Source of the DNA: Sarcophilus harrisii
Lineage: Eukaryota
DNA length: 64,000 bases
Assembly: GCA_048593225.1 (NCBI GenBank)
Contig: CM109176.1
Coordinates: 477,499,429-477,563,428 of the forward strand
Direction: 5' to 3'
Under the pieces are notes generated by a model that ran no database searches, was not told the origin of the DNA, and saw only the letters and a program-made list of their open reading frames with translations. Positions 1,324 to 59,096 of this stretch are shown here, one piece after another. Positions within the stretch are counted from its first letter, which is position 1; every line of letters begins with the position of its first letter. Made by a program: the position numbers and the translations under genes.

Positions 1324-1410
1324 AGGACTATCTTGATCCATCAAGTAAGCTCCATGGCCTTGACTGATGGCTTCTCTGTACTCCTGATGGGCTTCTTCCT
1401 TTTCCTTGAC
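1324..1410 (-). CDS. PARP4: PARP4 coding exon (VIT domain). The gene continues below the window start.
   Basis: Translation VKEKEEAHQEYREAISQGHGAYLMDQDSP aligns with human IKEKEEAQQEYLEAVTQGHGAYLMSQDAP. Acceptor attatttttttcttag. Donor CCT|gtatgg. Confidence 0.85.
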
Positions 1411-1665
1411 CTAAGAAAAAAATAATTTTAAAAAGTTATGACAAATATGGTAACTTCCTTATTTCATGTAGAAGAATTAATTGTTCAAACTCAAATATTA
1501 GAAATGTTTATTTCAGAAATGAATAGAATCTGAAATGAATGTAAATTTGAAAAGCAAGCCAATATGTATAAAATCACTACTCAGAAACCCATTACACTGC
1601 ATAAATAAAAAAAGGTGTGTCTGCAGAGAAAGCAAAACAAGTGAGTGTAATTCATTATTCTTTAC

Positions 1666-1797
1666 CTCTGCTATTATATGCTTGCCATTGATGAAAGCTT
1701 CAAACCCACACACTGCTGCTTTGTCATCCAAGGGAAAGACATATTTTGTTTCAATAGGCAGATCACTCTTATTGTTATATGCTTGAAAAACAATTAT
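1666..1797 (-). CDS. PARP4: PARP4 coding exon (VIT domain)
   Basis: Translation IIVFQAYNNKSDLPIETKYVFPLDDKAAVCGFEAFINGKHIIAE aligns with human VIVFQTYTNKSHVPIEAKYIFPLDDKAAVCGFEAFINGKHIVGE. Acceptor ttctatttctag. Donor GAG|gtaaag. Confidence 0.9.
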
Positions 1798-2329
1798 CTA
1801 GAAATAGAACAAGAGCCATTTTGTTAATGAAGTGCTTTTAAAATTTATTTTTTTGAAAAGTGGCCAACACAAACTGTGCATATTTGGGGGGTTAAATTGT
1901 GCAGGTGTTAGTTCTAATAAGTGCCTTAGTTTTCTCATAAGTGCCTACAGTCATAATGCAGAACCCAAACCACATACAAAAATGCAGTCTGTTTTAACTT
2001 TAAGGAGTTGGTGCTTACCTGACAAAAGCATGGTTTATTCTCATAAAGCTAATACAATGTTAAAAAAAAAACAAAAAACCTTTGCTAGAACTTTATAGTT
2101 GCTGCAAGTGCAGTGTTCTCTGATCATCCTGACCCCACTGCTGATTAACAGGGAAGATTTGCCCTGCTTTCTTTCTGACTTGAGCTAGTTTCACTCTTTC
2201 ATGGTAGGTCAGTACTCTATCACCACCATATTGATGTCGGACTTAATACAAACACATAATTGACTTTAGCTCTATTACAACTAAAAACTCCTTCATTATA
2301 CATGGAAAAAACAAGACTATACAATGATC

Positions 2330-2553
2330 AATTCTGATGGCCGTGACTATCTTCAACAATGAGAGAATTCAAACCAGTTCTACTTGTTCAGTGATGATGA
2401 GAGCCATCTACACCCAGGGAGAAAACTGTGGGAGCTGACCACAACATAGCATTCTCACTCTTTCTGTTGTGGTTTGCTTGCATTTTGTTTTCTTTCTCAG
2501 GTTTTTTTTCCTTCTTGATCTGATTTTTCTTGTGCAGCAAAATAATTGTATAA

Positions 2554-2585
<32 letters not shown>

Positions 2586-2760
2586 GATTTAATGTATGTT
2601 AACATTTAATATGTACTGGACTATCTACTATCTAGGGAAGAGGGTAGGAGGAAGGAGGGGAAAATTTGGAACAGAAGGTTTCACAAGGGTAAATGTTGAA
2701 AAATTATCCATGCATATGTTTTGTAAATAAAAAGCTTTAGCTAAAAAACAAAAACAAAAA
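2330..2760 (+). mobile_element. L1 3'UTR fragment, plus orientation
   Basis: ...acccagggagaaaactgtgggagctgaccacaacatagcattctcactc...ccatgcatatgttttgtaaataaaaagctttag. Confidence 0.8.
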
Positions 2761-3899
2761 ACAACTAAGAACTCCTGAACTCAAGTGATTTCCTAGGCTT
2801 AGTAGCAGGAATTAGAGGTGTGTTACTGCCATGCTTAGCTTGATTTTCTTTGTCACAAGGGGGAGTTAAATATAGAAGTGGTGGGAAAGATTTAAAAATG
2901 ACAGTGAAAATTAAAAACTAAAGTTTGACATTTTTTTTAACTTACAAAAAAGGATTATAAAGGAGACTGAGGATTCTGGGCCCAGTTCTGGCACTTGCTA
3001 GAATTGGTGTGAACTGGTTAAGTCAATTCATATATCTAAAAAATAATAGCCTTAGATTAGATGAGCTTTAAGGTTCTAACTTGAATTTCTACCATCCTAT
3101 ATATTTTTATGTTCACTTTTTACTTTTATATATCATATATATATTTTAAATCCTATACATGTTTTCATCTTAATTTGAAGTTCTATATAATGTTAATGAA
3201 TCTAGAACTGCTATCTATTTTTCAAGGCATTTTTTAAAGATTTAAGTCATAGAAATTATTTTTTTAAAGCAAGAAAACTTTAAACATTAAATTTGTAATT
3301 ACCAAATTTATATGTACATATATCAAATATATGACAAATGATGAGGAGGAAAATTTTATATTCTTTATAGTAAAATATCTCCATTAAGGGGAAGTAAAGC
3401 GTTAAAATATTAGTCATAACAAAAAAGGATAACACAAGTGAGCTTTTATAATAAACAAGTGCGGAATTGTAATAAAATTCTTATTTCATATTATTGTTGC
3501 TCATAATCTAGTTATTGTGGAAATAAACAGTATTTTTTTTATTGGATATGTAATTTCATTGAGGAAACCCAAAACCACATAGCAGTATAGTGAATTTTTT
3601 TTATATCCATAATTCTAACTCTATTAAGAAGTATTGTAAAATACCTCCTATGGAACTCTAAAAGATAGAATTATAGGATTCCTCATACTATGGTTTGAAA
3701 AATCCTGGACTAAAGCATCAAATATCAAAACATATGAGATGATAAGAGTACATCTGGGTTTCATTAATGAGTTCTAGTTACCAAGTCTGCACAAACTACA
3801 TTAAGAGTACAGAATGAACAGGTAGATGTCATGGCTGAACTGCCATGGTTCCTTGGAAACTTATAAAAGTCAAAGAATATGAGAGGGAAGTTTTTTCCC

Positions 3900-4500
3900 C
3901 CTCCTTTTTATCTTTTTTAATAGTATTTTATTTTTAAGAACATGTAAAGGCAAATTTTAACATCCATTTAAAAATTTTGAGTTCCAAATTTTCTCCCTTT
4001 CTTTCTCACTTCCCTCTCCCTAAGACAATAAGTAATTTGACACAGATTATATAAGTATAATCATGTGGACATGGCTCTTTTCAACAATGAGATGATTTTA
4101 AAAAATTAATTAAGTGAAACTAATAGGTTTTGATTGCATTTAGACTCTATCAGTTCTTTGGATGTGAAAAATAATTTTCCTAATAAGATCTTTGGAATTG
4201 TCCTAGATCCTTGCATTGCTGAGAATAGCAAAGGCATTCATAGTTGATCATCATACAACATAGCTGCTATCTTGTACAATTGTCTCCTAGTTTTGCTTAT
4301 TTCACTTTGCATCAGTTCATATAAGTCTTTCCAGGTTTTTCTGAAATCTGCCTGCTCATCATTTTTTCAGCACAATAATATTCCATTACATTTATATACC
4401 ACAACTTATTCAGTCATTTCTCAATTGATGAGTAACCTCTCAATTTCCAATTCTTTGCCACCAGTGGTATAGAGACACTATAAATAATTTTATATATTCT
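3900..4500 (-). mobile_element. L1 3' end of the second 3'UTR subtype, minus orientation
   Basis: Same family as 7500-8130, 13780-14100 and 19700-20060. It runs contiguously into ORF2-antisense sequence at 8290, which identifies it as an L1 3' region. Confidence 0.6.
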
Positions 4501-4503
4501 TTC

Positions 4504-4538
<35 letters not shown>

Positions 4539-4833
4539 CTGAAGCATTTGGGATTAAGTGACTTGCCCAGGGTCACAAAGCCAGGAAGTGTTAAGTGTCT
4601 GAGATCAGATTTGAACACAGGTCATCCTGATTCCAGGGCTGGTACTCTATCCACTGTGCCACCTAGCTGCCCCTCCTATTCCCTTTTATACCACATTTTA
4701 CATATGAAACTGAGGCAAACAGGGTTAAGTAACTTGCCTAGATTACATATAATAAGTGTCTGAAGTCAAATTTGAACTCCTGATTCCTGGCCCAGCATTC
4801 TATTCAGTATGCCACTTAGCTGCCTTGATACCA
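4500..4833 (-). mobile_element. Two adjacent marsupial SINEs, minus orientation
   Basis: A T-rich tail followed by the reverse complement of the SINE (…ccacctagctgcccc), then a second copy ending …ccacttagctgcc. Confidence 0.85.
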
Positions 4834-5036
4834 TCGGTTGGCATATATAAAACAAAAAACTCGAATATGAGGTGAGCCACATACATAAAAATATTTCTAG
4901 AAGAATTTTCTGTAGTAGCAAAGTACTGGAAGGAAAGCAGGAACTATCTTTTGACTTTTTCTGTATCTCTAACACTTAACTCATAATAGGTGCTAAGTAA
5001 ATATTTATTGACTGATGGATTAAAAAGATATGCCCA

Positions 5037-5200
5037 GGGGGGCAGCTGGGTGGTGCAGTGGATAAAGCACCAGCCCTGAAGTCAGTAGGACCTGAGTTCA
5101 AACCTGGCCTCAGACACTTAACACTTCCTGGCTATATGTGACCCTGAGCAAGTTACTTAACCCCAATTGCCTCAGGGAAAAAAAAGAAAGGATATGCCCA
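5037..5200 (+). mobile_element. Marsupial tRNA-derived SINE (SINE1_Mdo-like)
   Basis: ggggcagctgggtggtgcagtggataaagcaccagccctgaagtcagtaggacctgagttcaaacctggcctcagacacttaaca...aaccccaattgcctcaggg followed by an A-rich tail. Confidence 0.9.
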
Positions 5201-6589
5201 AATTCTGACTTGGAAATTGGTAAACAAATTATGGCAGATGAATGTAATATAATATTATTGTGCTATATGCTATGATTACCCAACTTCCAGATTACACTAC
5301 TTCCAGTAGTACTACTTCCTACATTTGGTACACTCATGTTGCTTTTCCTGATACTCATCTTTATATTGTATTCTTACAAAAAAGTACTTATCCTTGATTT
5401 GTATATAACACATCTGCTTTGCTAACCATTCACAAGTGGATTTGATATAGTTGTCTTATTTTGTGTATTTCTTTTACATATGTATTCATGTTACTATGTG
5501 CTTGATTATAACCTCAAAAAAAAGGGTCAAGAATTACAGCTGTGTGGTCCTCAATTTGTTACTTGATAATTTCGTTTTTTAATAATGATTGAAAAAGGTA
5601 CTTTTGCTAGGATAGAAATTGTATTAATATCCAATGAGTAGCAAGGCTACTTGAAAAAAAGTTTGGCATCTTAGTCCCTTTCATTTAAAAATAAGACTTA
5701 TATCCTTGGCAGAGGCCATGAAATTAATAAGATACAAATACTGATCTCATTCCAAGAAGAAATATTTCCAGCTCAGAGTAAAAATGCACAAGGAAATATC
5801 AAGTCAAAACTATGTAGACTTCTGTTTGTGGGTCAAGGACACTTTATGGGCTAGAAGCCCAGCCATAAATTCAACTAAAAGACTTTTTGTTTTGTTTTAA
5901 AGTATGAATAATTTTCTCTACTGAAGTTATTTTTACAATGCCTCATTATGACATGAAGGTGACCCTGGACTTTTAAAGGTGATAACAGCAGAGCACAAAT
6001 ACTCATAAGTCCTTCCATGCTGGAAAAACTTTTGAGTCTAGCAAGGGTCTAGATGTTTGACATCTGAAGTCAAGTGTAGCTGAGTTTAGAAAGATACATC
6101 ACCAGCCTGGTCACCAATTTTTCAGCATGGCAACTCTCAAAAGGTCACCTATTAGGCTATAGAGGTGCTGAATGTGTATCAATGGTGGGAGTACATATAA
6201 GAAAAACATAGCTATCTGAAATATTGAAATATGATTAATTTAGGACCAAATTTAGGAGCAGAAGTCTTATTAGATTACAACATAAAGTGAAAAATAACCA
6301 ACACCTCTCTGATGATAAAAGGTCATCGATCAGATGTTAAATAGTATGAATATCATAATCATTAGTTTGCTGCTTTTTGACCATACAAAACAAACTACGC
6401 CCATGTCCCCTGCCAAAATGTTATGGGTCAGAACTCTGTACTTAAAAACAAGCATTCTTACAAGGTGTTAAGTCAATGGAATTGATGAGACAATGGTTAT
6501 CTAGTTTAGCATGGTGATTAAGAGTTCTCTAGTTCAGTACATGTTCTTAGTACTTAATATAGTTCTACAAGATTCACACCTATGATAAT

Positions 6590-7050
6590 GTAATTATAAG
6601 AGAGCATATAAGCTGGGACAAACTCAGCCAGAGTCAGAACCAGAGAAGACAGAAGGCTGGAGGGTGGAGCACAAGCCCTCAGACTCAGAGAGACATTCCA
6701 TCTTTGATCAGGCTCCTGGTGGCTCTCCTTCTTCCTGCACTTTGGGAGAGACTGGTACAGACTCAGAGGGACTGAGAGACAGATTCATTCCGTCGTCCAC
6801 CTTTGTGGTGGCTGGAGGCTGAAGCACAAGCCAGGGGACTCAGAGCCAGATTTATCCATCCCATCTCACATCACCTTGGTGGCAGGGGTCTCCTCCTTAG
6901 CTTCTCCACTGAACCCCAGACTTGGGAAGGTCTTTAAGAAAGCTAGCCAGGCCCCAGGCAAGGAAACTAGATTGTGAAGGAGATAATAAAGGATTTGGAC
7001 TTTAACACCTGACTATTCTCCTGGTGAATACTGAACTGAACTGAAACAAA
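6590..7050 (+). repeat. Unclassified interspersed repeat with an internal ~80-bp duplication. An inverted second copy lies at 25800-26200.
   Basis: gacagattcattccgtcgtccacctttgtggtggctggaggctgaagcacaagcc at 6780-6835 matches the reverse complement of 26050-26110 (gacagattcattccatctttcacctttgtggtggctgcaggctgaagcacaaacc). Confidence 0.7.
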
Positions 7051-7059
7051 GGCTGCTCC

Positions 7060-7500
7060 AAGAACTCCAGAAAACCCACAAGAACATTACACCAAACAAT
7101 ACAAAATATAACAGTAATTTAAGTAGATATAATATACTTAGGTTTCAGTAAAGCACTCAAAAAGTTTCTCACACTAGTCTTATGGATAAGATGGGAAAAT
7201 GAGGACTAGGTGACAGTACTATTAGACTAAGAAATGGCTCAATAGCTGAATTAAAAGCTAGTCATAAATAGGTTGATGCCTACCTGGAGAGAGGTCTTTA
7301 GAATATGCTTGATCCTGGGAAGCTCAATATTTTTGCCAATAACTAGGATGAAGCAATAGAATGTATATTTGTAATATGTATGAGTGTCACAAAGCTAGTA
7401 AGGGTAGCTAATATGGTGGATGACAAGATTCAAAAAGCTCCTTAGAGGCTAGAATGATGGGCCAAAACAAATAAATAAAATTTAATAAGTATAACTGTGA
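7060..7500 (+). mobile_element. Non-LTR retrotransposon reverse-transcriptase fragment (RTE/L2/CR1-type)
   Basis: Translation contains ...ILGSSIFLPIT...NMVDDKIQKAP...WAKTNK..., resembling the SGVPQGSVLGPxLFNIFINDL ... FADDTKL ... W motifs of RTE/CR1-clade reverse transcriptases. Confidence 0.5.
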
Positions 7501-10500
7501 AGATCTACATTTTTATTTTTTAAAATATTTTTCCAATTATATGTAGAACAATTTTTTAAATTTTCTTTTAAAAAAATTTTTGAATTCCAAATCCTCTCTT
7601 TCTTCCTCTTTCATCTCTTCCCTCATTGGTCAACCAAGCAATTTAATATAGATTATACTGGTGAAGTCATGCAAAACATATTTCCATTAGTCATCTTGTG
7701 AAAAAAACAAAACAAAACAAAACAAACAAACCCCAAGAACAATAAAGAAAGTTTACAAAAAAGTGTGCTTCAATTTGCATTCAGACTTCATCAGTACTTT
7801 CTCTAGGGGTAAATAGCATTTTTCCGTATAAGTACTTTGGAATTGTCTTACAATGTATTGTTGTGAATGGCTAAGTCATTCGTAGTTGATCATTGTATAA
7901 TATTGCTGTTATTGTGTATACTGCTCTGGTTCTACTCACTTCACTTTGCATTAGTTCATATAAATCTTTCCAGATTTTTTTGAAAGCATCCTGCTCATCC
8001 TTTCTTATAGCATAATAGTATTCCAACACAATCATATACCACAATTGAAAAGCATCCCTTCAATTTCTAATTCTTTGCTACCACAAAAAGAGCTACTATA
8101 AATATTTTTGTACATATAAGTCATTTTCATTTTCCTTTTTTTTTCCTGAAGTGACTTGCCCAGGGTTACACAGCAAGGAAGTGTTAAGTGGCTGAAGCCA
8201 GATTTGAATTCAAGTCCTCCTGACTTCAGGGCTGGTATTCTATCTACTGTACCAACTAGCTGCCCCAGTCCTTTTCCTTTTTAAAACTCTCTTTGGGATA
8301 TAGATCTAATAGTATTGTTAATGGTACTGCTGGGTTAAAAAGTATGTATTTTTTGATTGCCCTTTGGATACAGTTCCAAATTGCTCTCCAGAATGGTTGG
8401 AGGAGTTCACAACTCCACCAATAGTGTATTACTGTCCCAATTTTCCCATATCCCTTCCAATATTTGTCATTTTCCTTTTTAAAATTATATTAGCCAATCT
8501 GATAAATGTGAGGTGGTTTTAACTTGCACTTCTCTGATCAATAATATTTGAGATAATTTTTCATAGAACTATTTTTAGTTTTGATTTCTTCATCTAAAAA
8601 CTGCCTGTTCATTTAATTTGACCATATATCAAATAGGGAATAGCTCTCATTTTTATTTATTTATTTATATTAATTTGACTCAGTTCTACAAATGTTTGAG
8701 AAATGAGGACTTGATCAGAGAAACTTTTTATCTCTCTTTTTTCTGTTTTCCTTCTAATCTTGGTTACAATGATTTGACTTTGCAAAACTTTTTAAATTTA
8801 ATGCAATCAAAATTCTTCATTTATATGCTGTAATGTTCTCTATCTCTTTTTTGATCATAAATTCTTCCTTTATCCATAGGTTGACAGGCAAAATATTGGC
8901 AAAATATTACATGGTTCCCTAATTTATTTATGGTATCACCCTTTATGACTAAATCATATAATCCACTTTGCTATCCACTTCCATTTTATGGATAAGTCTG
9001 TCCCACTCACATTCACAGTCAAATTTTCTTTCATCCAACTTTCCCTCATCCTTTGTCCTTTTTGTCCTTTCATTCTGTCCCTCCTCAAAAATGTTCTATT
9101 TCTGATTGCCTCCCTCAATCTGCCCTCATCTCTATTAGTACCTCCCCTGCTATTTCCCTGTAAGTTATATTTCTAAACCAAATGAATGTGTATGTTATTC
9201 TCTCTTTGAATCAATTCCAGTGAAAATAATATTCAAGCACTGAATCCCTTATCTTTCCCTCTACTGCAAAAGCTCTTTCACATCTTTTCTTTATGCAGAT
9301 TTCCCTCTTGTCCTAGGACATATCTCTTTCTAATTCCTTAATTTTACTTTTTGGGATATTATCCAATTATAGTCATCTATTTATATTCCTTCTTCTTTTG
9401 TTTTTTCTGAGGCAATTGGGGTTAAGTGACTTGCCCAGGGTCGCATAGCAAGGACATTATGTGTTTAAGACCAGGTGTGAATTCAGATTGTCCTGACTTC
9501 AGGGCTGGTGCTCTATCCACTGAGCCACTTAGCTGCCCCTATTTATATTCCTTCTAACTGCCCTAATAACAATAAAGTTCTTAGGAGTTACAAATAACAT
9601 CTTCCTATGTAGGGATGTCAATAATTTAATCCTATTGTATCCTTTCTTTTATGTTTATCTTTTTATATATCTCTTGAATCTTGCTTTTGACGATCAGATT
9701 TTCTATTCACTCTGTTTTTTTCATCAAGAATGTTCAAAAATCCTCTCTTTCACAGACTATCCATTTTCCCTCCGAATTATAATCAGTTTTGCTACATATG
9801 TCATTTTTGGTTGTACTGCTAGCTTTTTTGCCCTCTGGACTTTCACCTTCTAAGCCCTCTGATCTTTAATATAGAAACTGCTAAATCTTGTATTATCCTA
9901 ACTGTGGTTCCATGAGTCTTGATTTCTTTCTTTCGAGTTGCTTGCAATATTTTCTCCTTGATTTGGGAGCTCTGGAATTTGGTCTGAGAGTTTTCCCTTT
10001 AAAGGGTAATTGGTAGATTCTTTCAATTTCCATTTTATTATCTAGTCTAAAATATGAGGGCAGTTTTTCTTGATAATTTCTTGAAAGATGATTTCTAGGC
10101 TCTTTTTTTTTTCTTTTTTGGTCAAGACTTTCTGGTGGTCCGATAATTCTTAAATTATCTTTCCTAAATCCCTTTTTCACAGATTATTTTTTTTCCAATG
10201 AGATCTTTCATATTTTCTTATATTTTTCATTCTTTTGATTTTGTTTTATTATTTCTTTATGTCACAAGAAATCATTTCCAATTGCTCAATTCTGTTTTTT
10301 AAGGAATTATTTTTTTTTTTCAGTAAGCTTTTGAACCTCCTTAACAAAACTACTGGCTCTCTTTTCATGATTTTTAGTATCACTCTCATTTCTTTTCCCA
10401 ATTTTTCCTCTATTTCCTCTATTTTGATTTTTATAAATCTTTCTGGATCTCTCCCAAGAATTCCTTTTGGCCCTGAGACCAATTCACTTATTTTATTTTA

Positions 10501-11340: not shown

Positions 11341-11449
11341 GATAGCATTCATATAAAAAGGATTTGTTGTTCACTTGTTTCAGCTTTGTTAGATTTTTTG
11401 TGACCCTTTTTGAAATTTTCTTGGCAAAGATACTGGAGTGGTTTGCTAT

Positions 11450-12048: not shown

Positions 12049-12760
12049 TTGTTCTGCTGTGATGGGTGGAAGTTGCAGAGAGACAGATTAAGGCTTGATT
12101 TAAGAAAAACATTTCCTAAGATTATGGCAGCCCTTTTTGAAATGACAAGAAACTGGGAACTAAGTGGATGCCCATCAGTTGGAGAATGGCTGAATAAGTT
12201 ATGGTATATGCATGTTATGGAATGTTATTGTTCTATAAGAAATGATCAGCAGGATTATTTCAGAGAGACCTGGAGAGACTTACATGAACTGATGCTGAGG
12301 GAAATGAGCAGGACCAAGAAATCATCGTACATGGCAACAAGATTATATGATGGTCGATTATGATGGGCATGTTTTTTTCTATAATGATATGATTCAGGCC
12401 AGTTCCAATAGTCTTGTGATTATGAGAAACATCTACACCCAGAGAGAGAACTGTGGGAACTGAGTGTGTATCACAACATAGCATTTTCACTCTTTGTTGT
12501 TGTTTGCTTGCAGTTTGTTTTCTTTCTCATTTTTTCCCTTTTTGATCTGATTTTTCTTATGTAGCATGATAATTGTGGAAATATGTATAGAAGAATTGCA
12601 CATGCTTAACATATATTGAATTACTCTCTAAGGGAGGGCTGAGTGAAAGGGAGGGGAAAAATTCAGAACACAAGGTTTTGCAAGGGTAAATGTTGAAAAT
12701 TATCCATGTTTTGAAAATAAAAAGCTTTAATATAAAAAATTTCCTAAGATTAGAGATGCC
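12049..12760 (+). mobile_element. L1 3' end, plus orientation
   Basis: The same L1 ORF2 tail and 3'UTR consensus as the other copies. Ends ttttgaaaataaaaagctttaatataaaaaa. Confidence 0.8.
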
Positions 12761-13148: not shown

Positions 13149-13273
13149 CATGGCATACCTGGGCTATGAAGTCCATTATTCTTCCCTTGATATGAATCTC
13201 TTCAAGAGGGACTTGAATCCCAGAGAGATCTTGAAGGCCAGCTTTTATATTGATGAAAGGGTTGGTATCTGGT
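13149..13273 (-). CDS. PARP4: PARP4 coding exon (start of VIT domain)
   Basis: Translation (D)FALPDTNPFINIKAGLQDLSGIQVPLEEIHIKGRIMDFIAQ aligns with human YQLPDAKTSSSTKAGLQDASGNLVPLEDVHIKGRIIDTVAQ. Acceptor ctatttag. Donor CAG|gtatgc. Confidence 0.9.
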
Positions 13274-27623: not shown

Positions 27624-27761
27624 CGGGAAAGAATTCCAACAATATTTCTCCCAGGTGTTCCATGTAATAAGGACTGAACATTGCCAAGCTTGCTCTGAAA
27701 TTCCACTGTTTCGTGAACTTTGCCAATTCGATATATGTTTAAGATGTCCACTAGATTCTTC
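27624..27761 (-). CDS. PARP4: PARP4 coding exon (PARP catalytic domain; contains the catalytic His)
   Basis: Translation (G)KNLVDILNIYRIGKVHETVEFQSKLGNVQSLLHGTPGRNIVGILS(R) aligns with human SPVDVLQIFRVGRVNETTEFLSKLGNVRPLLHGSPVQNIVGILCR. Acceptor aatttttgcag. Donor CG|gtaata. Phase 2/2. Confidence 0.9.
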
Positions 27762-27991: not shown

Positions 27992-28860
27992 TTGTTGAAA
28001 ATGGGCATCAAGCATTGTTGGTGGAGTTGTGAACGAATCCAACCATTCTGGAGAGCAATTTGGAACTATGCTCAAAAAGTTATCAAACTGTGCATACTCT
28101 TTGATCCAGCAGTGTTACTACTGGGCTTATATCCCAAAGAGATTATAAAGGGAAAGGGACCTGAATGTGCACGAATATTTGTGGCAGCCCTCTTTGTAAT
28201 GGCTAGAAACTGGAAACTGAATGGATGTCCATCAGTTGGAGAATGGCTGAATAAATTGTGGTATATGAATATTATGGAATATTATTGTTCTGTAAGAAAT
28301 GACCAACAGGATGATTTCAGAAAGGCCTGGAGAGACTTACATGAACTGATGCTGAGTGAAATGAGCAGGACCAGGAGATCATGATATACTTCAACAACAA
28401 TACTATATGATGACCAGTTCTGATGGACCTGGCCATCCTCAGCAACGAGATCAACCAAATCATCTCCAATGGAGCAGTAATGAACTGAACCAGCTACGCC
28501 CAGAGAAAGAACTCTGGGAGATGACTAAAAACCATTACATTGAATTCCCAATCCCTATATTTATGCACACCTGCATTTTTGATTTCCTTCACAAGCTAAT
28601 TGTACAATATTTCAGAGTATGATTCTTTTTGTGCAGCAAAATAACGGTTTGGTCATGTATACTTATTGCGTATCTAATTTATATTTTAATATATTTAACA
28701 TCTACTGGTCATCCTGCCATCTGGGGGAGGGGGTGGGGGGGTAAAAGGTGAAAAATTGGAACAAGAGGTTTGGCAATTGTTAATGCTGTAAAGTTACTCA
28801 TACATATAACCTGTAAATAAAAGGCTATTAAGTCTCAAAAAACAAACAAATAAATAAATA
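27992..28860 (+). mobile_element. L1 3' end (ORF2 C-terminus plus 3'UTR), plus orientation
   Basis: ORF 27992..28384 is L1 ORF2 tail (IQPFWRAIWNYAQKVIKLCILFDPAVLLLGLYPKEI...NWKLNGCPSVGEWLNKLWYMNIMEYYCSVRNDQQD). Ends ...cctgtaaataaaaggctatt. Confidence 0.85.
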
Positions 28861-30331: not shown

Positions 30332-30492
30332 CCAGAATTTTTTTGTAATACTTCTTCTTTAACTTTGAAAAATTCTCTAGTATTCTCATCAACGTGCTCA
30401 ATTTTGCATCTTAGAGCTCGGTATTTGGCAAGAGAAGGTGGGTTAGATCTTGAGAGATTTGCTTCACTGACATTAATCACATCTCTTATGAG
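30332..30492 (-). CDS. PARP4: PARP4 coding exon
   Basis: Translation LIRDVINVSEANLSRSNPPSLAKYRALRCKIEHVDENTREFFKVKEEVLQKNS(G) aligns with human LIRDMVNVCETNLSKPNPPSLAKYRALRCKIEHVEQNTEEFLRVRKEVLQNHHS. Acceptor ctttctacag. Donor GG|gtgagg. 2 nt carried out. Confidence 0.9.
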
Positions 30493-31975: not shown

Positions 31976-32146
31976 CTGGCAGAGATCTTCTTTCTTAGAT
32001 AATAGTCTTTTGTTAACTTCATCTTCTGAATTTCTGTGAGGTATAAGTCGGTAGAATTCTGACATCATCTTTCTCAACTCTTCTGTGGTTTCACCCTTGT
32101 TTAATGCTGCCTTAACTTGAAGTAGAATACCCTCAGCTTTGCTTAC
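31976..32146 (-). CDS. PARP4: PARP4 coding exon
   Basis: Translation VSKAEGILLQVKAALNKGETTEELRKMMSEFYRLIPHRNSEDEVNKRLLSKKEDLCQ aligns with human VSKAEGILLLVKAALKNGETAEQLQKMMTEFYRLIPHKGTMPKEVNLGLLAKKADLCQ. Acceptor ttaaag. Donor CAG|gtactt. Confidence 0.9.
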
Positions 32147-33402: not shown

Positions 33403-33540
33403 ATCATTTAGGCTGATGCTATTTGCTGTCTTGAGAAGAATGTTTTCCAGGTGACCAAGAGCTTCTACCCAAATCAACTCCACTAAATTACTCACTTCTT
33501 CACTTATAGTATCTCCATTTAACACATCCTCCAACATCAA
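33403..33540 (-). CDS. PARP4: PARP4 coding exon
   Basis: Translation LMLEDVLNGDTISEEVSNLVELIWVEALGHLENILLKTANSISLND aligns with human LLLEEVMNSSTLSQEVSDLVEMIWAEALGHLEHMLLKPVNRISLND. Acceptor ttttggttctag. Donor GAT|gtaagt. Confidence 0.9.
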
Positions 33541-34146
33541 CTAGAACCAAAAAAAAAAAACAAAAAACCCTTCAAATTACAAAAGTGCACACGTTTAAAA
33601 CCAACTTGAGAATGAGAAGGGGATAAAAAAAAATCATAATTATGGCCTCGAGTAGGAGAACTAACATAGACATTTGTGGCATTCTACAGCTCCTCATCCT
33701 GATGCTTTTTTATTTTCTCATGCTTTCCTTCTTTCCTCATCTTTTTTCTAGTTCTTTCTTTTCCCTTCTATTTTCCTTAGATTTGTTGGCTTTAGGTCCT
33801 CCCTTTACACTTATGGGTATTTCTTACTCATATTAATGGTGTTTTGGTTAAAAAAGACATATACTTACATATCTTATAGAATTATTGAAACCAAGTAGAG
33901 TTTGCTATATATATATACATTACCAATAAGTTAAGGTTGTTGCAGATTATCCCCTTTGGCTATTATGACTTTTTTCATGATGCTAAGATAAATAAGTTCT
34001 TGTTTCTATAAGCTTTCCCCCTACCTTTAAAATTATTTTCTATTTTGTCAATTTTTCACTTAAATATCTTTTATCTTAAATATATTAAAATAAGTTATTT
34101 AAATAATTTGTGATCAGACCAAAAAAAAAAAATAAATCAATTTAAC

Positions 34147-34296
34147 TGCTTGTAACTTCTCAGATGCCAGTAGGTTTGCTTCAGGTGGAAAACTTTCTGA
34201 TGCCAGAAATCCTTGTTTCTTCAATTCTTCAACATAACTTTCATAGTATTCACTTGCATCTTCAGATGTGTTCTTTCTAGATAAATGTCTCCTAGT
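34147..34296 (-). CDS. PARP4: PARP4 coding exon (weak GT-TAAA donor)
   Basis: Translation TRRHLSRKNTSEDASEYYESYVEELKKQGFLASESFPPEANLLASEKLQA aligns with human TRRQFAIKKTSEDASEYFENYIEELKKQGFLLREHFTPEATQLASEQLQA. Acceptor ttcacag. The only donor compatible with frame and protein is GCA|gttaaa. 150 nt, phase 0/0. Confidence 0.75.
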
Positions 34297-34769: not shown

Positions 34770-34950
34770 GTGGCAGGGGGCAGCTAGGTGGTGCAGTGGA
34801 TAGAAAACCAGCCCTAAAGTCAAGAGGACCCGAGTTCAAATATGATCTCAGACACTTAACACTGCCTAACTGTGTGACCCTGAGCATGTCACGTAACCCC
34901 AATTGCCTCAGCAAAAAAAAAAAAAAAAAAAAAAGAAAAAGAAAAAAGTC
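34770..34950 (+). mobile_element. Marsupial tRNA-derived SINE with poly-A tail
   Basis: gggggcagctaggtggtgcagtggatagaaaaccagccctaaagtcaagaggacccgagttcaaata...aaccccaattgcctcagcaaaaaaaa. Confidence 0.9.
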
Positions 34951-36581
34951 CCAAATGTATCACTATATCATAACAGCATATTAGTTGACACTATATCATA
35001 ACAGCATATTAGTTGATATTCATAATAATGATCTTGAGAAAGTGTTAAATTATATTTTAAGTACATTGCTTATTAAGCCAGACAAATACTTAATGTATTT
35101 CATAAGGAAATCCATTAAATATCCAAAATTAAAAATTTCCAGTTCTTAAGGGGGCAAGTTTCAGGTGTCTAGAAAATTTACTTAAGCGGAATATCTCATT
35201 CTGTAATAATGTTAATTATATAGGACACATCTTTATTGCCACAAAATTGATTTATGATGATTCTAGTTCAATCCGACAAGTACGCAGCTACAGATTGAGA
35301 AAGGGGAAATAAACCAATGAGAAGAAAATAAAAAGCTTCAGAAGATGACAGCAAAGTCCTTGGGTTCTTGGCCATCACATTTTCTTGCTTACATAAAAAA
35401 ATTCCCCATTGCCCCAGTGGCAGAGTACAGTAATGATTTCTCCTTTCCCCTTTTCTGGAAGTCCCAATAGACGGAGCACTGGAAGAGTCATAAAACATAC
35501 AAATGAGGCTGGTTCTTCCCGACAATTTTTTTAGCCCACTAAGTGAGTGGAATCTCTTGACTCTGTAGCAAATCATCTTCAATATATCTCATGTTACTAG
35601 TGAGTAATCAGGAGCTTGTGTATCATCTCAATAAGGAACAGCATGGGGTGAGAGCATATGTCCCATAAAAGAGACCAGTGCTCATGCCTAGCTCCATAGA
35701 GGATACCCTCAGGAGGCTCCTCAATCACTACAAGACTGTAATTTACATTAGAACATTGCAGAGCCTCTTAAATGAAAACAATAATCATTCTAAAGACCCA
35801 AGTCTAATTATCTAGAACAGAAAAATCTAGTGGATGCAGGATGATCATTGTTGAGACTAATATAAAGTTGCACATGTGACAATTAGAGCTGTCAGTACTT
35901 AGTCAGTACATATATCTCAGAAAGCTACTGAGATGGATAATAAATAAATGCCCACCAAGAGGTGAAAAGAAAGTTGCATTTGAGGAATTATATAACACTT
36001 TCAACAAATCCAAATTTCTATCTGAAACAAACAAAAAGTACTATTTTCATGCAAGTTTCTTCTAGTGATATTTTATAGCTCCAGATTATCATGTTCAGAG
36101 AAGGTGTTTTCTTACATTGTCAGGGGAGTTATCTCTGGTGATGAAATCATAGGCCCATCCCTTATTCTAATCCTAACCATTATAAACAAGCCTGCAAATA
36201 ATTTGCAATATTCAAAATACTGCTATCTTCTCTAAGTAATTTTCTACTGTTCCACAATCCTCCCATCTAATAAGTTATGGTTATCATTGATGATAACCTC
36301 ATACTATCTTTCCTAATTGTTCAGGGGCAGTCAAAGATTGCACTACTGTATATGAAATGAGTAGGGACAGAGACAGGAAATTCCCCCACAATTTTTGAAT
36401 GTGTGGTAAATTCTAACAAAAATAAAGAATCTGAATTCCATAATAATTGTATTATACAATTCTTTTGTATCAAACTGTTGATTAGTAAAGCTCTAAGAAG
36501 CTAATAGGGTGATTTGTTGACAAAACATGTCTAGGATATGGACTCTAGCAAATGATGAGCACCTATAAAGTAGACAAATAC

Positions 36582-36695
36582 CTTAATACCACCTTCCAGC
36601 AAAAGATTGGAAGATACAAGAAAAGAAAATTCAGGATGCTCCTGGAAGCACTGCAATTCCACCACCACCACTTCTTTCTCTCCCTCTGATTTAAT
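36582..36695 (-). CDS. PARP4: PARP4 coding exon
   Basis: Translation IKSEGEKEVVVVELQCFQEHPEFSFLVSSNLLLEGGIK aligns with human VGMEGGQEAVVVELQCSRDSRDCPFLISSHFLLDDGME. Acceptor ccttttccag. Donor AAG|gtattt. 114 nt, phase 0/0. Confidence 0.85.
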
Positions 36696-37453
36696 CTGGA
36701 AAAGGCACAGTATGGTATTTTAAATCATGTCACATTTTATGTTTTTATATATGTATAAGCATATACATATATATACACACATAGACACAAAATGCATATA
36801 TACATACATATGAAGAGGTTTACTTTCTTGTTTTTTAAAGAATGTTATTGGATTTACAATATCTGAGGTTTGTAAATTTCTGTGAAACAATTTTCAGATG
36901 CAAATAAGATTAAACAGAAGGGAGGTCTAGCAACTCCAAGGAATGAGTACTGGTGCTGACCTGGAATAATCCCCTCCTCCCCCTTGTTCTTAAGAACTGT
37001 TTTTGAAATATATTAGTAGTGAGCCATGGGGAAAGTCAATGAACCTTTCCATGTTTCAGCTTTCCCAGATTAGAGTTACAGAGAAAGTTCCAATGGGCAT
37101 CGATAAAGGAAGTTCCTACCTGGGAGTTCCCTTCACTGATAAAATCACAATTCTAGTTTAATTAAAACAACAACAACAACAAACCCAACCATGAGGTGGT
37201 ATCAAGCTCCCAGTAGGGGCCTGAGCCTTCCATAAAGCAGCAGTGTTTTGATGTCTGTTTTTCTTCGTTTGAGGAATCCTGGATTTTGAAAAAACAAAAC
37301 TGTTTTCCTAAATGCAAATGTGGTCAAAATTTTATATGGCTTTATAAAATCTATCCTTTGAGCTGAGGATATTGAAGCTTTCAAAATGAGTTGGAAAATT
37401 ATTAAACAAAATATATTAAAACAATTATACATATTGGAAATTAAAGTTCTCAC

Positions 37454-37529
37454 TTTTTCTAGGATGCTGTACTTTGCAACTTCAAAATCTTGAGGAATAT
37501 ATGTGATGTCGTCATCTTCTGTACAAAAT
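37454..37529 (-). CDS. PARP4: PARP4 coding exon
   Basis: Translation FCTEDDDITYIPQDFEVAKYSILEK aligns with human IPHLPQDFEVAKYNTLEK. Acceptor tatatttcag. Donor AAA|gtgaga. Phase 2 in, 0 out. Confidence 0.85.
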
Positions 37530-39149
37530 CTGAAATATAAACAATAATTTCTTAAATATTAAAGTGTGTTTTTGAGCAGAAGTTTGCATTGGTATAAAAA
37601 TTTTTATGGCAGAATCCTTTTTCTGATATTTTTACTAACTTATAAATACACCGATCCATATCCCATTGAAGTGTAAAGAATCTTTAGAAATGAACCAGAC
37701 TAACCCCTAAGTGACATGTCTCTATTGTCCATTTATGCTTTATCACAACGGTTGAGACTGCCAAGTAATCCACATTTCTACCCTATATATATTAAAACAT
37801 CATGAATATGTATATTAGACAGAAGTAAGGGGGCAGAGATAAATTTTTCCCTAGAGAAGTTTATGTAAAAAAATGTCATACAATGTAAAGAAGAATGAGA
37901 ATTTGTAGAAACAGCCTGGTTTTAGTGACCCTGGACAGGTCACTTAAACTTCTCACTGCTCTAGGCAATTGTAAGACTCTAAATTATAGAGAAAGTGCTG
38001 TCTTGCTTTAGTAGACAGAATTTTCTCTCTCAGGAGGTTCCTGAAGCAATGAAATCATAGGTTTTATATCTATCTCTTCATTATAATCCTCTTTTCAATC
38101 TTTTTCCTCCTCTTATGGTTCAAAATAAATATAAGACTAAAATAAACAATTTTGATATATAAGTTATGTAAAAAGTTTAAAATAGGATTTGAGAAAACAC
38201 TGCACCTTAATTCTCACAAAATCCTTTGACAGGAGGATGACAATATTTACTTTAGTGGAATCTAAAGAGAGAGAATAAATAAATGCCTTGATCGAGGTAA
38301 TTTAGTCGTGGCAGAGAGACTGGTAGAGCTAGGATTAGAATCTAGATCTAGTGAATGCTATTTCAGTACTCTTTCCACCTACCTCCTGTAATGCTGGGAA
38401 ATAAATCAATAGTTCTTCAAGTAAAATACATTAAATAACAGAGAGCCAAATGAACACTGCATGTAGAACAAAATCTCTCAAAAGACTGATAACAGGATTT
38501 GGCACTGGCCCAAATTACTTAAAAAGGAGACGCTTACCTGAGAGATGCCAGGGTTTTGTTTCTGTGAGACAGAAGACCTGGTTCACGCATGGACCTTCTG
38601 CACTGGCTTACCACAGGAGTGGGAATAGCCTGTTTGCAATGGCTAGTAGTTGAACCTGTTTGGTAGCCAGAACTGTTTGTTTTTAACACTACCTGAGAGT
38701 ATCTCTCTTTCCAATGGTATCCAAGAGTAAATGATTCATTCACTCAGAGCACAGCCACCATGAAACAAGCTGAGGGCAGATTTGAAAACCACCTTTCTCT
38801 CTTTTTAAACCCTGCGGCCCCAACAGGCGGAACATTTTTAGTTGTTATTTGTTCTTTTCAGTTCTAAGTACAGAAAGTGGAGTCTTTAACTTAGTAGCCC
38901 AAGTCATGGGGACATGGTACCCTAGGCCCATCAAGGAGGAGCTGAGAGAAGAGGGTTCTGGACACAGGCTCGGGGGTGACTTGAGATTTGTATGGAACCG
39001 CGATTTTAGGTAGCTTGGGCATGTACCAAACTCTTGTTACAGACTGGAACAGTCTGCTATTGGATGGATGTTTAGTGAAGTAAGTAAAAGTTGCTGAAAA
39101 TTTTTTAAACTCTAGAGAAAGTCATGATGATTACAAATCAATTTATTGG

Positions 39150-39285
39150 AGCAGCTAGGTGGCGCAATGGATAGAGCATTAGCCCTAAAGTCAGGAGGAC
39201 TTTCAAATATGTTCAAATATAACCTCAGACACTTAATACTTCCTGGCTATTTGACCCTGGGGAAACACTTAACCCCAATTGTTTT

Positions 39286-39321
<36 letters not shown>

Positions 39322-39330
39322 GAAATGAGA
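39150..39330 (+). mobile_element. Marsupial tRNA-derived SINE with poly-A tail, lying in the PARP4 intron between exons 3 and 4
   Basis: ggagcagctaggtggcgcaatggatagagcattagccctaaagtcaggagg...aaccccaattgttttagcaaaaaaaa. Confidence 0.9.
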
Positions 39331-39336
39331 GTTTAC

Positions 39337-39400
39337 TTATTCTGCTCCATAATCTCTTCATTCTTCTCTGCAGTACTATGCAAGTCATCCTTGTCCACTC
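39337..39400 (-). CDS. PARP4: PARP4 coding exon (divergent BRCT-to-linker region)
   Basis: Translation (R)VDKDDLHSTAEKNEEIMEQN(K) gives only a weak match to human ...DSATEEEDTVELTEFGMQNVE. Reading-frame phase fits both neighbouring exons (1 nt in, 2 nt out). Acceptor tcttctcttccag. Donor AA|gtaaac. Confidence 0.65.
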
Positions 39401-39647
39401 CTGGAAGAGAAGATATGTATTTATTATTCAACATAATTTAATTGTGAATAGCTTGATAAGAATATCTATAGACAAATAAATAAGGGCCCATAAAATTTGG
39501 ATCATCAAGACATAGGAGGCCTATAAGAATATATTTTATAATTCTATTTAAACAGTATACAGGCATAAATGTACCTACATTTTCTCTGTAGTACCTGAAG
39601 CATATTTTCTGATTTCTATGAAAATGGGTATTCATAACGACACTTAC

Positions 39648-39849
39648 TGGAACTGCTTGATCTTTCAAAAGGAAGTAGAGTGAGTCCTGATGATTCATTG
39701 CATTTGTAATTCTCAATACTTAAGAGTTCTCCTTGTTTGAGGCAGTCCCATAAAAAATCTATGTTTGCGATGGAGATGTGATACTCCTGGACAGCACTTA
39801 GCTCATCAGAACTCAGAGTAGCATCATTGTCTAAAATTATATGTGTACA
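39648..39849 (-). CDS. PARP4: PARP4 coding exon (BRCT domain)
   Basis: Translation CTHIILDNDATLSSDELSAVQEYHISIANIDFLWDCLKQGELLSIENYKCNESSGLTLLPFERSSSS aligns with human CTHIILDNADVLSQYQLNSIQKNHVHIANPDFIWKSIREKRLLDVKNYDPY. Acceptor is a T27 run followed by ag. Donor CCA|gtaagt. Phase 0 in, 1 nt carried out. Confidence 0.85.
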
Positions 39850-39850
39850 C

Positions 39851-39881
<31 letters not shown>

Positions 39882-40079
39882 AAGGAAAGGAAAATTTATT
39901 TTGTATTTGGGATACCTGACCTGTATGTTAACAATATCCCCCTTTAAAAGCCATATCCGACACTAATGATTGTTGATAAAAGTTGTGAAATGATTCATAT
40001 TAAAACAAACCCTGAGGTACCACTTCACACCTATCAGGTTGGTCAAGACAACAGGAAAAAATAAAGTTAAATATTGAAG

Positions 40080-40870
40080 GGATTGTGGGAAAACCGGTGG
40101 AGTTGTGAAGTTGATCCAAGCTATTCTGGAGAACAATTTGGAACTATGCCCAAAGGGCTTTAAAACTGCGCATACTCCTTGATCCAGCAGTGTCACTATT
40201 GGGTCTGTATCTCAAAAGCTCTTAAAAGAGGGAAAAGGACTCACATGTGCAAAAATGTTTGTAGTAATCTTTTTGTAGTGGCAAGGAACTGGAAATTGAG
40301 TGGAAGCCCATCTGTTGGGGAAATAGCTGAATAAGTTAGATATATGAATGTAATGAAATATTATTGTTCTAAAAGAAATGACCAGGCTGATTTCAAAAAA
40401 GCCTGGAAAATTTACATGAACTGATGCTGAGTAAAGTGAGCAGAACTAAAAGAACATTGTACATAGTAACAGCAAGATTATATGATGACTAACTATGATA
40501 GATTTGGCTCTTCTCAGCATGGCGATGATTCAAAGCAATTCCAAAAGACTTGGGATGGAAAATGCAAATGCATCCAGAGAGAGAACTATAGAGACTGAAT
40601 GTGGATCGAGGCATAGTATTTTCACTTTTTTTGTGTGTTTGCTATTATTTTTTTGTTTTTTTTCCTTTTGGTTTGATTTTTCTTATAGGGGACAAATATG
40701 AAAATATGTTTGAAAAGATTGGATATGTTTAACCTAACATATCAAATTGCTTGCTGGTAAGCGAGGGAGAAAAATTTGGAATACAAAATCTTACAAAAAT
40801 GAATGTTGAAAACTATCTTTAAGTATATTTAGAAAAATAAAATACAATTGAGAAAAAAATAAATAAAAGT
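40080..40870 (+). mobile_element. L1 3' end, plus orientation
   Basis: ggtggagttgtgaagttgatccaagctattctggagaacaatttggaactatgcccaaagggc...aaaaataaaatacaattg. Confidence 0.8.
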
Positions 40871-42419
40871 CACATTCAAAAGTAATTTTGCAATGAATTT
40901 CTCAGATTTAAAAGCTCTTAGAAAATAAAATAATCTTAGGGTACACAAAAATTACCTAAAAGAAAATGCTATCAATCACATTAGGGATTCGACCAGTATT
41001 AGAAAACAGCTCACAAAGTCAACTGAGTGTGGAGTGAATTAACTTCTTAGCTCCAAAAAAACAGGATTAGATGAGAAGTGAGAGAAGAGCTCACATTTCT
41101 GTCTCAACTACAGATAAACAGTAATATTGTTTTTTGTAGAACTTTAGTGTAAAAAAGACTTTTAGACATCATCTGATCTAAATGGTAAAGAATCTACTTG
41201 AAGTTTTAGATCCTTTCAATTAATTAATCAGCAAGGATTTATTAAGCACACATTACATTCTAGATACTGTGCTGTGCAAGTGGGAGAATATGAATAATGA
41301 ATAATCCCTATTTTAAAATATTTATTTAATATTTTTATTTTCCCCAGTTACATAAAAAACAATTTTTACATTTGTTTTTTAAAACTTTGAGTTCCAGATT
41401 CTCTCCCTCCCTCTCCACTTTTCCTGAGGAAAGGTGAGGCTGAAGTGCATTGTAGGCAGGAGGCTGAGAAAACAATATAGAGACACTGAGGTGAGAGATA
41501 GTCTTTTAAGTGTGAAAAAGAGAAAAGACCGGTTTGATTACATCAAAGAGTAAAGGAAGGTAATGGACAATGAAAGTGGAAAATTCATTGGGCCAGCTTG
41601 TAAAAGGCTTTAAAGCTAAACAGAAGAATTTCTACTTCATTTTAGAGGCAACAGGGAACCAGTGGAGCTGACTAAGCAGCAGAATAGTATGGTCAGACCT
41701 GCACATAAGGAAAATTTCATTGGCAGCAGGAATTAGGATGGGTTTGATTGGGAAGAGATTTGAGGCAGGTAGGGAGACTAGTTAGGAGGTAGTGAGGGTT
41801 TCAACTAATGTAAAGTGTAAATATCTGATTAGAAAGAGGATTCTAATGCTAGAGAATATAGCACATGTAGATACAGAAATGACATGTGTGAGAAAGTCGG
41901 GGGGTGAGGGAGAGGGAGGATAAGACCTGGGAGATGGGGAGGTTTGTTGTCTTTGACAGAGGGAAGCACTTGGGGAAAAGAAAATGAGTTCAATTTTAGA
42001 CATGTTGAAGTTAAGATGTCTCAAGAATATCCAGTGTGAAATGTCCAATTAAATGATTTGTGATTAGGGTCTGAAATTTAGAGGAGATACTGGAGCTGGA
42101 TATACAGATCTGTGAGTCACTTGCTTGGAATTATAATTTAAACCCATGGGAGCTAATGAGGTTATTGGGAGTGAGCATAAACATAGAAGAGGTCTACAAT
42201 AAAATTTTGGGGGATTACCACATAAGTAGGGAGCATGATGTGAACAATAAGCTAACCAGCAAAAGATTCCAAGTAGTGGTAGTAGTAGTAATTATAATAA
42301 TAATAATAACAGTTAACATTTACATAATGCTTACTATGTGCCAGGCATTGTGCTATGCATTTTATAGTTATCTTATTTGGTACTACAACAACCCTGGAAA
42401 GAAGGTGCTTTTATTATCC

Positions 42420-42565
42420 CCATATTACAGATGAAAAACTGAGGCAAACAGCAATTAATTGACTTGCCAAGCATCATATAGCTAGTAAATGTCTGATATC
42501 ACCTTTGAATTTAGGTCTTGCTGACTCCAGTCCAAGCACTCTATCCACTTGTGCCATCTGGCTAT
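42420..42565 (-). mobile_element. Marsupial SINE, minus orientation
   Basis: …aaactgaggcaaacagcaattaattgacttgccaagcatcatatagctagtaaatgtctga…ctatccacttgtgccatctggctatc. Confidence 0.8.
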
Positions 42566-44505
42566 CTAAGAATAGTTATTCTCTTGAACACCATTGATGA
42601 TGAGGAACTACTTTTCAGTCTCATTTTTGGACAGCTTTGATTGCTAGATGGCTTTTTAAAGTATTGAACTGAAACCTGCTAATCTGTAACAATACCATTT
42701 CTGATTATATTAATATTCCTTTTAATCTATAAAAAGAAATTTTAATATTACATGGAATATTACAGTCACATTTTTTCAAGCCCCAGTTTCCTACAAAATT
42801 ATACAGTTCTGTTGAGGGAACTGACAAATTCTTTCTTATCCTTCATATTCATAACTAAAAGTCATTCTTGACTATTTCTTCTTCCACAGATAATCCTCGT
42901 TACCTTTCCCATTACCTCTCTTCAAGACTCCTTCCTTTTCTCTCCATTCAAAGACTCTCTCCTAGCTTAACCCCTCATCACCTCTATAGTAAGATTCAGA
43001 AAGGCTTTGCATAGGAGATGAAATCTACACTGAAATTTGGAGGAAGCTAAGTAGCTTAATAAGTAGAAATGAGGAATAAATGCATTCAGACTATCATTTT
43101 ATTGTTGTACCCTCAACAGAAACTGGGAAGTTTGGAAGAGAGAAAGATTTTTTTGAGAAAGATTTTGTATTTATTAATATTTATTTTAATGTTCAATATA
43201 TCTAATATAATAAAATTTCATTTATTTAAATTAAATTACACATAAAAGATGATATGAGAACAGGATGACATGTTGCATTTCAATATAAAGGAGCAACCCA
43301 AAAGTAAAATTTGTTGGCTTGAAAACTAGTGAGTTCTTTATCACTACAGATCTTTAAACACCTTTAAATACTTGTAAACAATGTTAGACTTGGCAAATGA
43401 TTGAATATGGTAAGTGATCGTAAAAAGAAGAGTCAGGATAACTGTGAGATTTGGAACCTGGGTGACTAGAAGGATAGTAGTGCCCTTAACAAAAATAGGT
43501 AATTTTGGAGGAAGAGAAGATTCAATAGGAAAGATGTCTGTGCTTTGGCCATGATGAATATTAATGTACATAGGTAAAAAGATACAGTAGGCAATTAGTG
43601 ACATAGAACTAGACATTAGGAAAGATGTTAAGGCTACATTTAAATATTTTTGGAGTTAACTTTGTAGAGAGAAAAATATTTGTTTTGGGGAGACTATTTT
43701 CTAATACATTTGGTACAAATCACAGAATGATCTGTTGTCAATTCTGACTGAACATAATGAAGATGACTTTAACACCTTCTTTTCCCAACTTTATTACAGG
43801 GAAGTACATATTTTTGTCTGATAAATCAAGAGAGGACACTCTATAATTTATCTTTGCCCCTTATTCTGTATGTTCAATTTCTTGCTAAATCATGCTACTG
43901 TTTTCTACTCATTCAAAATTAAACTTTTTCTTCTATCCCATATTGCCATGGGTTTTGTTTAGTTCCTGGTCAAATGATCAAATGAGATAATTTATATAAA
44001 ACACTTTACAAACTTTAAGGCTCTATATGTATAAATTATTATCATGACTCCATCATATATGATTAGTGAGTTCCTCCTGCCCAGAACTTCTACCTGAAGA
44101 AGTGGCGAAGGCAGTTACTCTTTAACTCAGCTCCACTCTTTCTTCATCCCCATTTCTTTTTTTCAGTTCCCTTTTTTGTGCTATCTTTCATTGTTAAATA
44201 TGTAAGCTTAAGCTTGTAAGTCTGGAGGTTAGGAATTATCTTTTTGATTTGTATTCCCAGTGCTTAGCATAGTGCCTGACATATAATAGATATTTAATAA
44301 ATGTTTATTAACTGTTAGTGGCCTTATACATCTTTTCCCCCTAAATTATTCCACCTTTCTTCTTGATTCCCTTAATTTATGCTATTCCCGCCAGAATAGA
44401 ACGGAATTTTTAAATTCATCTCTCCAATCAAAAGATATGATTTCTTAATTTCTTGTGGTGGTTTTTCAATATTTTAAAGATCTTAAGATGGTCTAAAGTT
44501 GATAC

Positions 44506-44638
44506 CTTGTGGTTTAATGTAGAGGAGACAATTCCATTGTTTTTTTTAATATTGTTTCTTAGTAATTTCTTCTGCATGTATTGTAAACTGTCATCTTTCA
44601 AATAGAATCTGTAATTTGTAAATATTCCCATGGTTATC
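44506..44638 (-). CDS. PARP4: PARP4 first coding exon (BRCT N-terminus). CDS starts at the minus-strand ATG at 44631; the exon begins at 44638 after its own 3' splice site.
   Basis: Minus-strand translation MGIFTNYRFYLKDDSLQYMQKKLLRNNIKKNNGIVSSTLNHK aligns with my memory of the human PARP4 N-terminus (MVMGIFANCIFCLKVKYLPQQQKKKLQTDIKENGGKFSFSLNPQ). Kozak context aaccATGg. Acceptor ttttttttaaacag lies immediately upstream. Donor AAG|gtatca. Ends in phase 0. Confidence 0.8.

Positions 44639-58964: not shown

Positions 58965-59096
<132 letters not shown>

Follow-up and report, generated by a model that had tools for sequence, protein, structure and literature searches.

A 64,000-nt stretch of Sarcophilus harrisii DNA (contig CM109176.1 of assembly GCA_048593225.1; the entire stretch is called the window here) had been annotated with the gene for PARP4, the vault PARP or ARTD4, on its minus strand. 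The locus raises the question whether an intact orthologue can be rebuilt from the genomic sequence, and whether the protein that it would encode retains its catalytic residues. We conclude that the minus strand from 44638 to 1324 is, with high probability, the 5' part of a PARP4 orthologue. Sixteen exons spread across 43.3 kb were spliced into an open reading frame (ORF) of 2127 nt, comprising 709 codons and no stop; the exon structure, the open frame, the homology, the domain order and the catalytic residues on which this reading is based were observed directly. The concatenate begins with 7 nt that presumably belong to the 5' untranslated region (UTR), followed by the ATG at 44631. Residue numbers refer to the spliced 709-residue model. 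PARP4 is an already known, well-described vertebrate gene, present here in its expected form.

The identity of the gene follows from comparison with human PARP4. The whole 709-residue product aligns with residues 3-711 of the human protein (PDB 11jf_P, a chain of 1724 residues) with 61.4% identity, three one-residue indels, 948 bits and E = 1.9e-284, and PARP1, PARP2 and PARP3 score about 59 bits or less (E ~1e-15). Structures of human PARP4 fragments are also recognized: the helical domain (HD) and ADP-ribosyltransferase (ART) fragment 8sx1 matches residues 239-570 (E = 4e-150), and the BRCT structures 9dfr and 9dev match with E = 3e-20 and ~1e-20, respectively. The best relatives in the homology search carry the name PARP4 and come from birds, lizards, frogs and mammals. 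The top full-length representatives, which are eutherian PARP4 proteins, are 62% identical over 709 residues and the next ones ~54%; named bird and reptile PARP4 proteins range from 45 to 60%. The greater similarity to eutherian sequences suggests, without proving it, a non-eutherian mammal as the source, compatible with a marsupial. With the full-length PARP4 protein P0145 as query, tblastn recovered 14 of the 16 exons in collinear order on the minus strand, and database proteins used as queries likewise gave collinear minus-strand matches between 44.6 and 1.3 kb. The first-pass annotation had therefore assigned both gene and strand correctly. It had also remarked that the ORF track mostly missed these exons or fused them to introns, which is accurate: in bacterial-style ORF lists only exons 1 and 12 appear at a length of at least 85 residues, both of them fused to intron sequence. 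The window itself is AT-rich (G+C ~34%) and has no long ORFs of the bacterial type, which is normal for the genome of a vertebrate.

To define the exons, all AG acceptors and GT donors near the tblastn matches were tabulated with their phases, and compatible phases were chained. An initial tblastn with human PARP4 served only as a lead; the conclusions rest on database and PDB sequences. Each of the 16 exons has an AG acceptor and a GT donor, and the phases chain without a break. The frame continuity proposed before is thus borne out, as are the splice dinucleotides, but the polypyrimidine tracts claimed for every acceptor are loose in exons 6 and 8 (~11-12 pyrimidines in 20 positions). The outer coordinates were placed exactly: at 44638 the first coding exon begins directly behind its acceptor AG, and 1324 is the final exonic base ahead of a GT donor.

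All exons are on the minus strand. Exon 1 (44506-44638), found by tblastn with P0145, P0007 and P0021, holds the ATG (44631-44629) and codons 1-42 with the start of the BRCT domain; its acceptor reads ..ttttttaaacAG and its donor gtatca. The remainder of BRCT and a linker are encoded by exon 2 (39648-39849; 202 nt, residues 43-109, donor gtaagt), in which all 20 positions ahead of the acceptor AG are pyrimidines. Exon 3 (39337-39400; 64 nt, residues 110-130, donor gtaaac) specifies an acidic linker of 21 residues (VDKDDLHSTAEKNEEIMEQNK). It is followed by exon 4 (37454-37529; 76 nt, residues 131-156, FCTEDDDITYIPQDFEVAKYSILEK) and by exon 5 (36582-36695; 114 nt, residues 157-194, IKSEGEKEVVVVELQCFQ...), which lies within the WGR-like region. 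Exon 6 (34147-34296; 150 nt, residues 195-244) ends at a weak donor, GTTAAA (34141-34146). The helical domain is encoded by exon 7 (33403-33540; 138 nt, residues 245-290) and exon 8 (31976-32146; 171 nt, residues 291-347, donor after ..EDLCQ), and exon 9 (30332-30492; 161 nt, residues 348-401) completes it and opens the ART fold.

The catalytic residues are distributed over the next four exons. Exon 10 (27624-27761; 138 nt, residues 401-447) carries His434 (codon 27664-27662) and Gly435 in SLLHGTP (27653-27673), and exon 11 (25169-25267; 99 nt, residues 447-480) carries Tyr474 (codon 25188-25186) in GIYFSDSL (25171-25194). Thr481, Gly482, Tyr485 and the sequences RFLVVCDVALG and PPGYDSVHG (23641-23667) are found in exon 12 (23605-23788; 184 nt, residues 480-541, donor after ..DFE). 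Exon 13 (22002-22161; 160 nt, residues 542-595) contains Glu544 (codon 22155-22153) in DDEFVIY (22141-22161) and precedes an 8.7-kb intron. Exon 14 (13159-13283; 125 nt, residues 595-636, donor after ..FIAQ) encodes a linker and the beginning of VIT, and an 11.4-kb intron follows it. The VIT domain continues in exon 15 (1666-1797; 132 nt, residues 637-680) with KAAVCGFEAFINGKHI (1675-1722), and in exon 16 (1324-1410; 87 nt, residues 681-709; ..GHGAYLMDQDSP, donor gtatgg), the last exon within the window. Five of the seven motifs quoted in the first-pass annotation are thus present at their assigned places; MVMGIF and LLLICDVALG are human sequence and absent from the window, which reads ..ITMGIF.. 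(with I and T preceding the ATG) and RFLVVCDVALG instead.

Several boundaries are supported independently, since partial models from other species read into the intron at the same donors: P0021 at the end of exon 8 (..EDLCQ), P0002, P0004 and P0142 at the end of exon 12 (..DFE), and P0001 at the end of exon 14 (..AQ). Exon 5, which is 45% identical to the human sequence, had no match at E<=1 when database proteins served as tblastn queries; phase and the full alignment determined its position. Exon 3 was placed by the required phase (1 into 2), its strong acceptor and a candidate search of the interval 39.6-37.5 kb; its linker resembles that of P0021 (..DSDAEKENIVELSK) and sits inside the end-to-end alignment with human PARP4. 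The exon 3 acceptor is a tandem CAGGAG of the NAGNAG type (39397-39402), allowing a start at 39400 or 39397, and could give rise to isoforms that differ by one codon. We also considered a transcript in which exon 3 is skipped, with splicing from a donor at 39644 to 37529, and rejected it as the main form: the donor is poor (TAA/gtgtcg) and lies beside a perfect one (CCA/gtaagt), and skipping deletes a linker that is present in all relatives. A seventeenth coding exon, as counted before, was ruled out. Human residues 3-711 are matched collinearly and with one-residue indels only, which leaves no coding sequence for another exon in this range, and tblastn with P0145 gives no further match on the minus strand.

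The domain order is that of PARP4. Pfam detects BRCT at residues 2-79 (E = 6.3e-12), the PARP catalytic domain (PF00644) at residues 386-562 (E = 4.5e-33) and VIT (PF08487) at residues 621-708 (E = 8e-27), so that the coverage of BRCT, catalytic and VIT-start regions described earlier holds. A PARP_reg match at residues 285-351 stays below threshold (23.7 bits against a cut-off of 26.8 bits; E = 5.4e-05), and no WGR or zinc-finger match was found by Pfam in the 709-residue product. Identity to the human protein is 70% in the HD, 68% in the ART and 76% in the VIT domain, and 26-50% in the linkers. The higher conservation of the folded domains is the pattern expected under purifying selection. 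The first 709 codons of the spliced mRNA would encode, in order, BRCT, a PARP1-homology region and, after a short linker, the beginning of VIT, with the PARP1-homology region consisting of a WGR-like segment, the helical domain and the ART fold with its His-Tyr-Glu (H-Y-E) triad. By homology with the human protein, NAD+ would be bound in the ART fold and single ADP-ribose units would be transferred, and the product, if expressed, would be anchored within the vault cage via C-terminal parts that are located outside the window.

PARP4 runs on beyond coordinate 1, as had been proposed. The VIT match is cut by the window edge, covering positions 1-88 of the 111 in the profile, and the sequence that follows human residue 711 has no match anywhere in the window (tblastn with P0145). 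The next exon (..DVFTVSVGNLPP..) was sought on the minus strand in positions 1-1323, where no credible match was found.

The N-terminus differs from that of related proteins. Relatives begin with M-[TV]-[VM]-G-I-F, and the position of the ancestral methionine is occupied here by ATA, encoding isoleucine (44629-44637 for the three codons). The third position is an ATG in a strong Kozak context (ACCATGG), two codons downstream of the lost start. Initiation has apparently moved to this codon, and the protein probably starts with MGIF rather than M-x-x-GIF.

In the crystal structure of human PARP4 the catalytic triad consists of H438, Y477 and E547 (PMC10711553). His434, Tyr474 and Glu544 align with these residues, in agreement with the earlier assignment of the triad, and among homologues the three positions are kept in 253/254 (His), 254/258 (Tyr) and 244/249 (Glu) sequences. 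The H-Y-E triad normally accompanies poly-ADP-ribosylation; in PARP4, acceptor-site changes such as T484 in place of K903 of PARP1 limit the enzyme to mono-ADP-ribosylation (PMC10711553). Thr481 aligns with human T484. An enzymatically competent mono-ADP-ribosyltransferase, previously deduced from the triad, is a reasonable prediction; the mono assignment comes from human PARP4 biochemistry and from acceptor-site residues such as T484, the triad being insufficient for it and, taken by itself, predictive of poly-ADP-ribosylation.

A caveat to this prediction is found in the nicotinamide pocket, which has been described as two tyrosines together with a serine and a glycine whose hydrogen bonds are essential (PMC9189837). 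Of the human pocket residues G439, S485 and Y488, the glycine and the tyrosine are retained as Gly435 and Tyr485, and the serine is replaced by Gly482 (codon GGC, 23784-23782), at the position of S904 in PARP1. In an initial sample of ~40 homologues serine appeared almost invariant. An exhaustive representative search, comprising 256 homologues, gave Ser in 74%, Ala in 12%, Cys in 5%, Thr in 5% and Gly in less than 1% (2/256). Because many relatives with an H-Y-E triad have Ala, Cys or Thr here, the serine hydroxyl appears to be dispensable, though glycine is rare. We therefore dropped the idea that Gly482 marks a dead enzyme to a mild caveat, Ala, Cys and Thr together accounting for ~22% of the 256 H-Y-E homologues. 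The glycine could be a feature of the lineage, a polymorphism or an error in the assembly. It is unlikely, judging from the sequence, that the vault PARP of this lineage has a genuinely altered NAD+ pocket, with glycine for the serine that bonds the nicotinamide carboxamide and with the triad intact; if it did, the pocket could bind NAD+ more weakly, or show a shifted sensitivity to PARP inhibitors that mimic nicotinamide. Searching the literature for Ser904 mutants of PARP1 brought up only unrelated proteins.

Could the exons belong to a different PARP, or to a copy of PARP4 that has lost its function? The ART and helical domains match PARP1, PARP2 and PARP3 structures at E ~1e-15, and there is the weak PARP_reg match, but the distance between 948 and ~59 bits, the combination of an N-terminal BRCT with a VIT domain that immediately follows the ART fold, which is the architecture of PARP4 (PMC10711553), and the absence of WGR and zinc-finger matches in Pfam make another family member extremely improbable; score gap and domain order refute a PARP1-, PARP2- or PARP3-like identity. 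A processed pseudogene is excluded by the presence of introns. An unprocessed, duplicated pseudogene or a truncated 'PARP4-like' paralogue in place of a functional orthologue is harder to dismiss, and would account for the ATA at the ancestral initiator and for the glycine at a usually conserved serine. Entries labelled 'PARP4-like' or partial (turkey, Sceloporus, Pan paniscus) point to extra copies or fragments in some genomes, and the part that can be inspected is limited to the N-terminal 709 residues. Nevertheless, 16 exons without a stop or frameshift and with canonical splice sites throughout, the conservation weighted towards the folded domains, the ATG in good Kozak context two codons past the lost start, and the head-to-head arrangement with CENPJ, a single-copy gene, next to a GC-rich island all argue for a functional gene, and we regard such a copy as very unlikely.

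Our preferred reading, a PARP4 orthologue, has to be held against the remaining points that weigh on the other side, besides Gly482. No protein more than 70% identical to the product was present in either protein collection, so that a close relative is lacking, and a search with exons 11-13 gave three matches, all at 67% identity or less. Only about 40% of the PARP4 protein is inside the window, the intact frame being seen over this part of it. Exon 3 is the weakest exon, with 24% identity to human, and the frame-preserving skip of this exon is possible as a minor isoform. Transcription and splicing as modelled are predictions.

Upstream of PARP4 and in opposite orientation, the gene for centromere protein J (CENPJ) has its first coding exon at 62966-63394 on the plus strand, with 143 codons from the ATG at 62966 and the donor CAG/gtaaaa. 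Its best named match is Molossus CENPJ (57% identity over the full query, E = 7e-42), all CENPJ matches being at or below 60% identity; the next CENPJ exon lies outside the window. The two genes stand head to head, and 18.3 kb separate their first coding exons. Between them is the sole GC-rich, CpG-containing block of the window (~59.1-59.65 kb, or 58796-59650 with its repeats; for 59001-59500, GC 0.62 and CpG observed/expected 0.56). Its flanks contain six tandem copies of a 19-bp repeat (58796-58912), (TC)65 (58965-59094) and (GGGGGT)16 (59473-59570). Two divergent ACTACA..TCCC boxes are found in the block, ~50 bp apart (59108-59119, minus; 59172-59183, plus), and the count of ACTACA-type motifs across the window is not above chance. 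We infer that the block is a candidate for a shared divergent promoter of PARP4 and CENPJ together with their non-coding first exons.

PARP4 introns, notably the two long ones (8.7 kb and 11.4 kb), and the intergenic DNA are rich in copies of one dispersed repeat, of which we found 12 segments including the query copy, at 70-90% identity and on both strands. They are located at 27992-28384 (plus), 52808-53156, 40096-40457, 12122-12325, 4283-4460, 7926-8046, 8270-8421, 15171-15265, 15783-15849, 20862-20992, 25336-25438 and 48013-48114. The translation of the repeat (..WLNKLWYM.MEYYC.IRND..) resembles the C-terminus of LINE-1 ORF2, without support from Pfam. ORF1-like fragments are located at ~9.9-10.5 kb on the minus strand. 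A Pfam search of the intronic and intergenic ORFs of the window for a LINE-1 label gave nothing significant, and an Rfam scan of the whole window gave zero matches at gathering score.

The value of this analysis is mostly in annotation. It provides a checked inventory of 16 exons, with coordinates, phases and start codon, that corrects the earlier count of 17 and two misquoted motifs. For studies of vault PARP in this clade it adds two small details that may be lineage-specific, the apparent shift of the start codon and the Gly482 of the nicotinamide pocket. The one point of evolutionary interest in PARP4, the positively selected large exon, exon 30 in human (PMC4038475), falls outside the window.

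Compared with human PARP4, for which full-length (11jf_P, 9bw6, 9bw7), HD-ART (8sx1, 8swy) and BRCT (9dfr) structures are available, the product is collinear and shares the order BRCT, WGR-like, HD, ART and VIT, the H-Y-E triad and the threonine corresponding to T484. It differs in an N-terminus that is two residues shorter, in the glycine for S485 and in the divergent exon 3 linker. The counterparts of the rapidly evolving exon 30, of vWA and of the MVP-binding parts are located outside the window. The catalytic region of PARP1 (PDB 1a26, 4dqy) has in common with the product the fold family, the H-Y-E triad and a helical domain ahead of the ART fold (PMC10711553). In contrast to PARP1, against which it scores only ~59 bits, the product has a threonine at the position of K903, a determinant of the acceptor site for chain elongation, lacks zinc fingers and carries a VIT domain after the ART fold. 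Bird and reptile PARP4 (P0001 from turkey, P0003 from Atlantisia, P0004 from Sceloporus) has the same domain order and the same exon ends ..DFE and ..AQ, but is more distant from the product than eutherian PARP4 (54% versus 62% identity over 709 residues).

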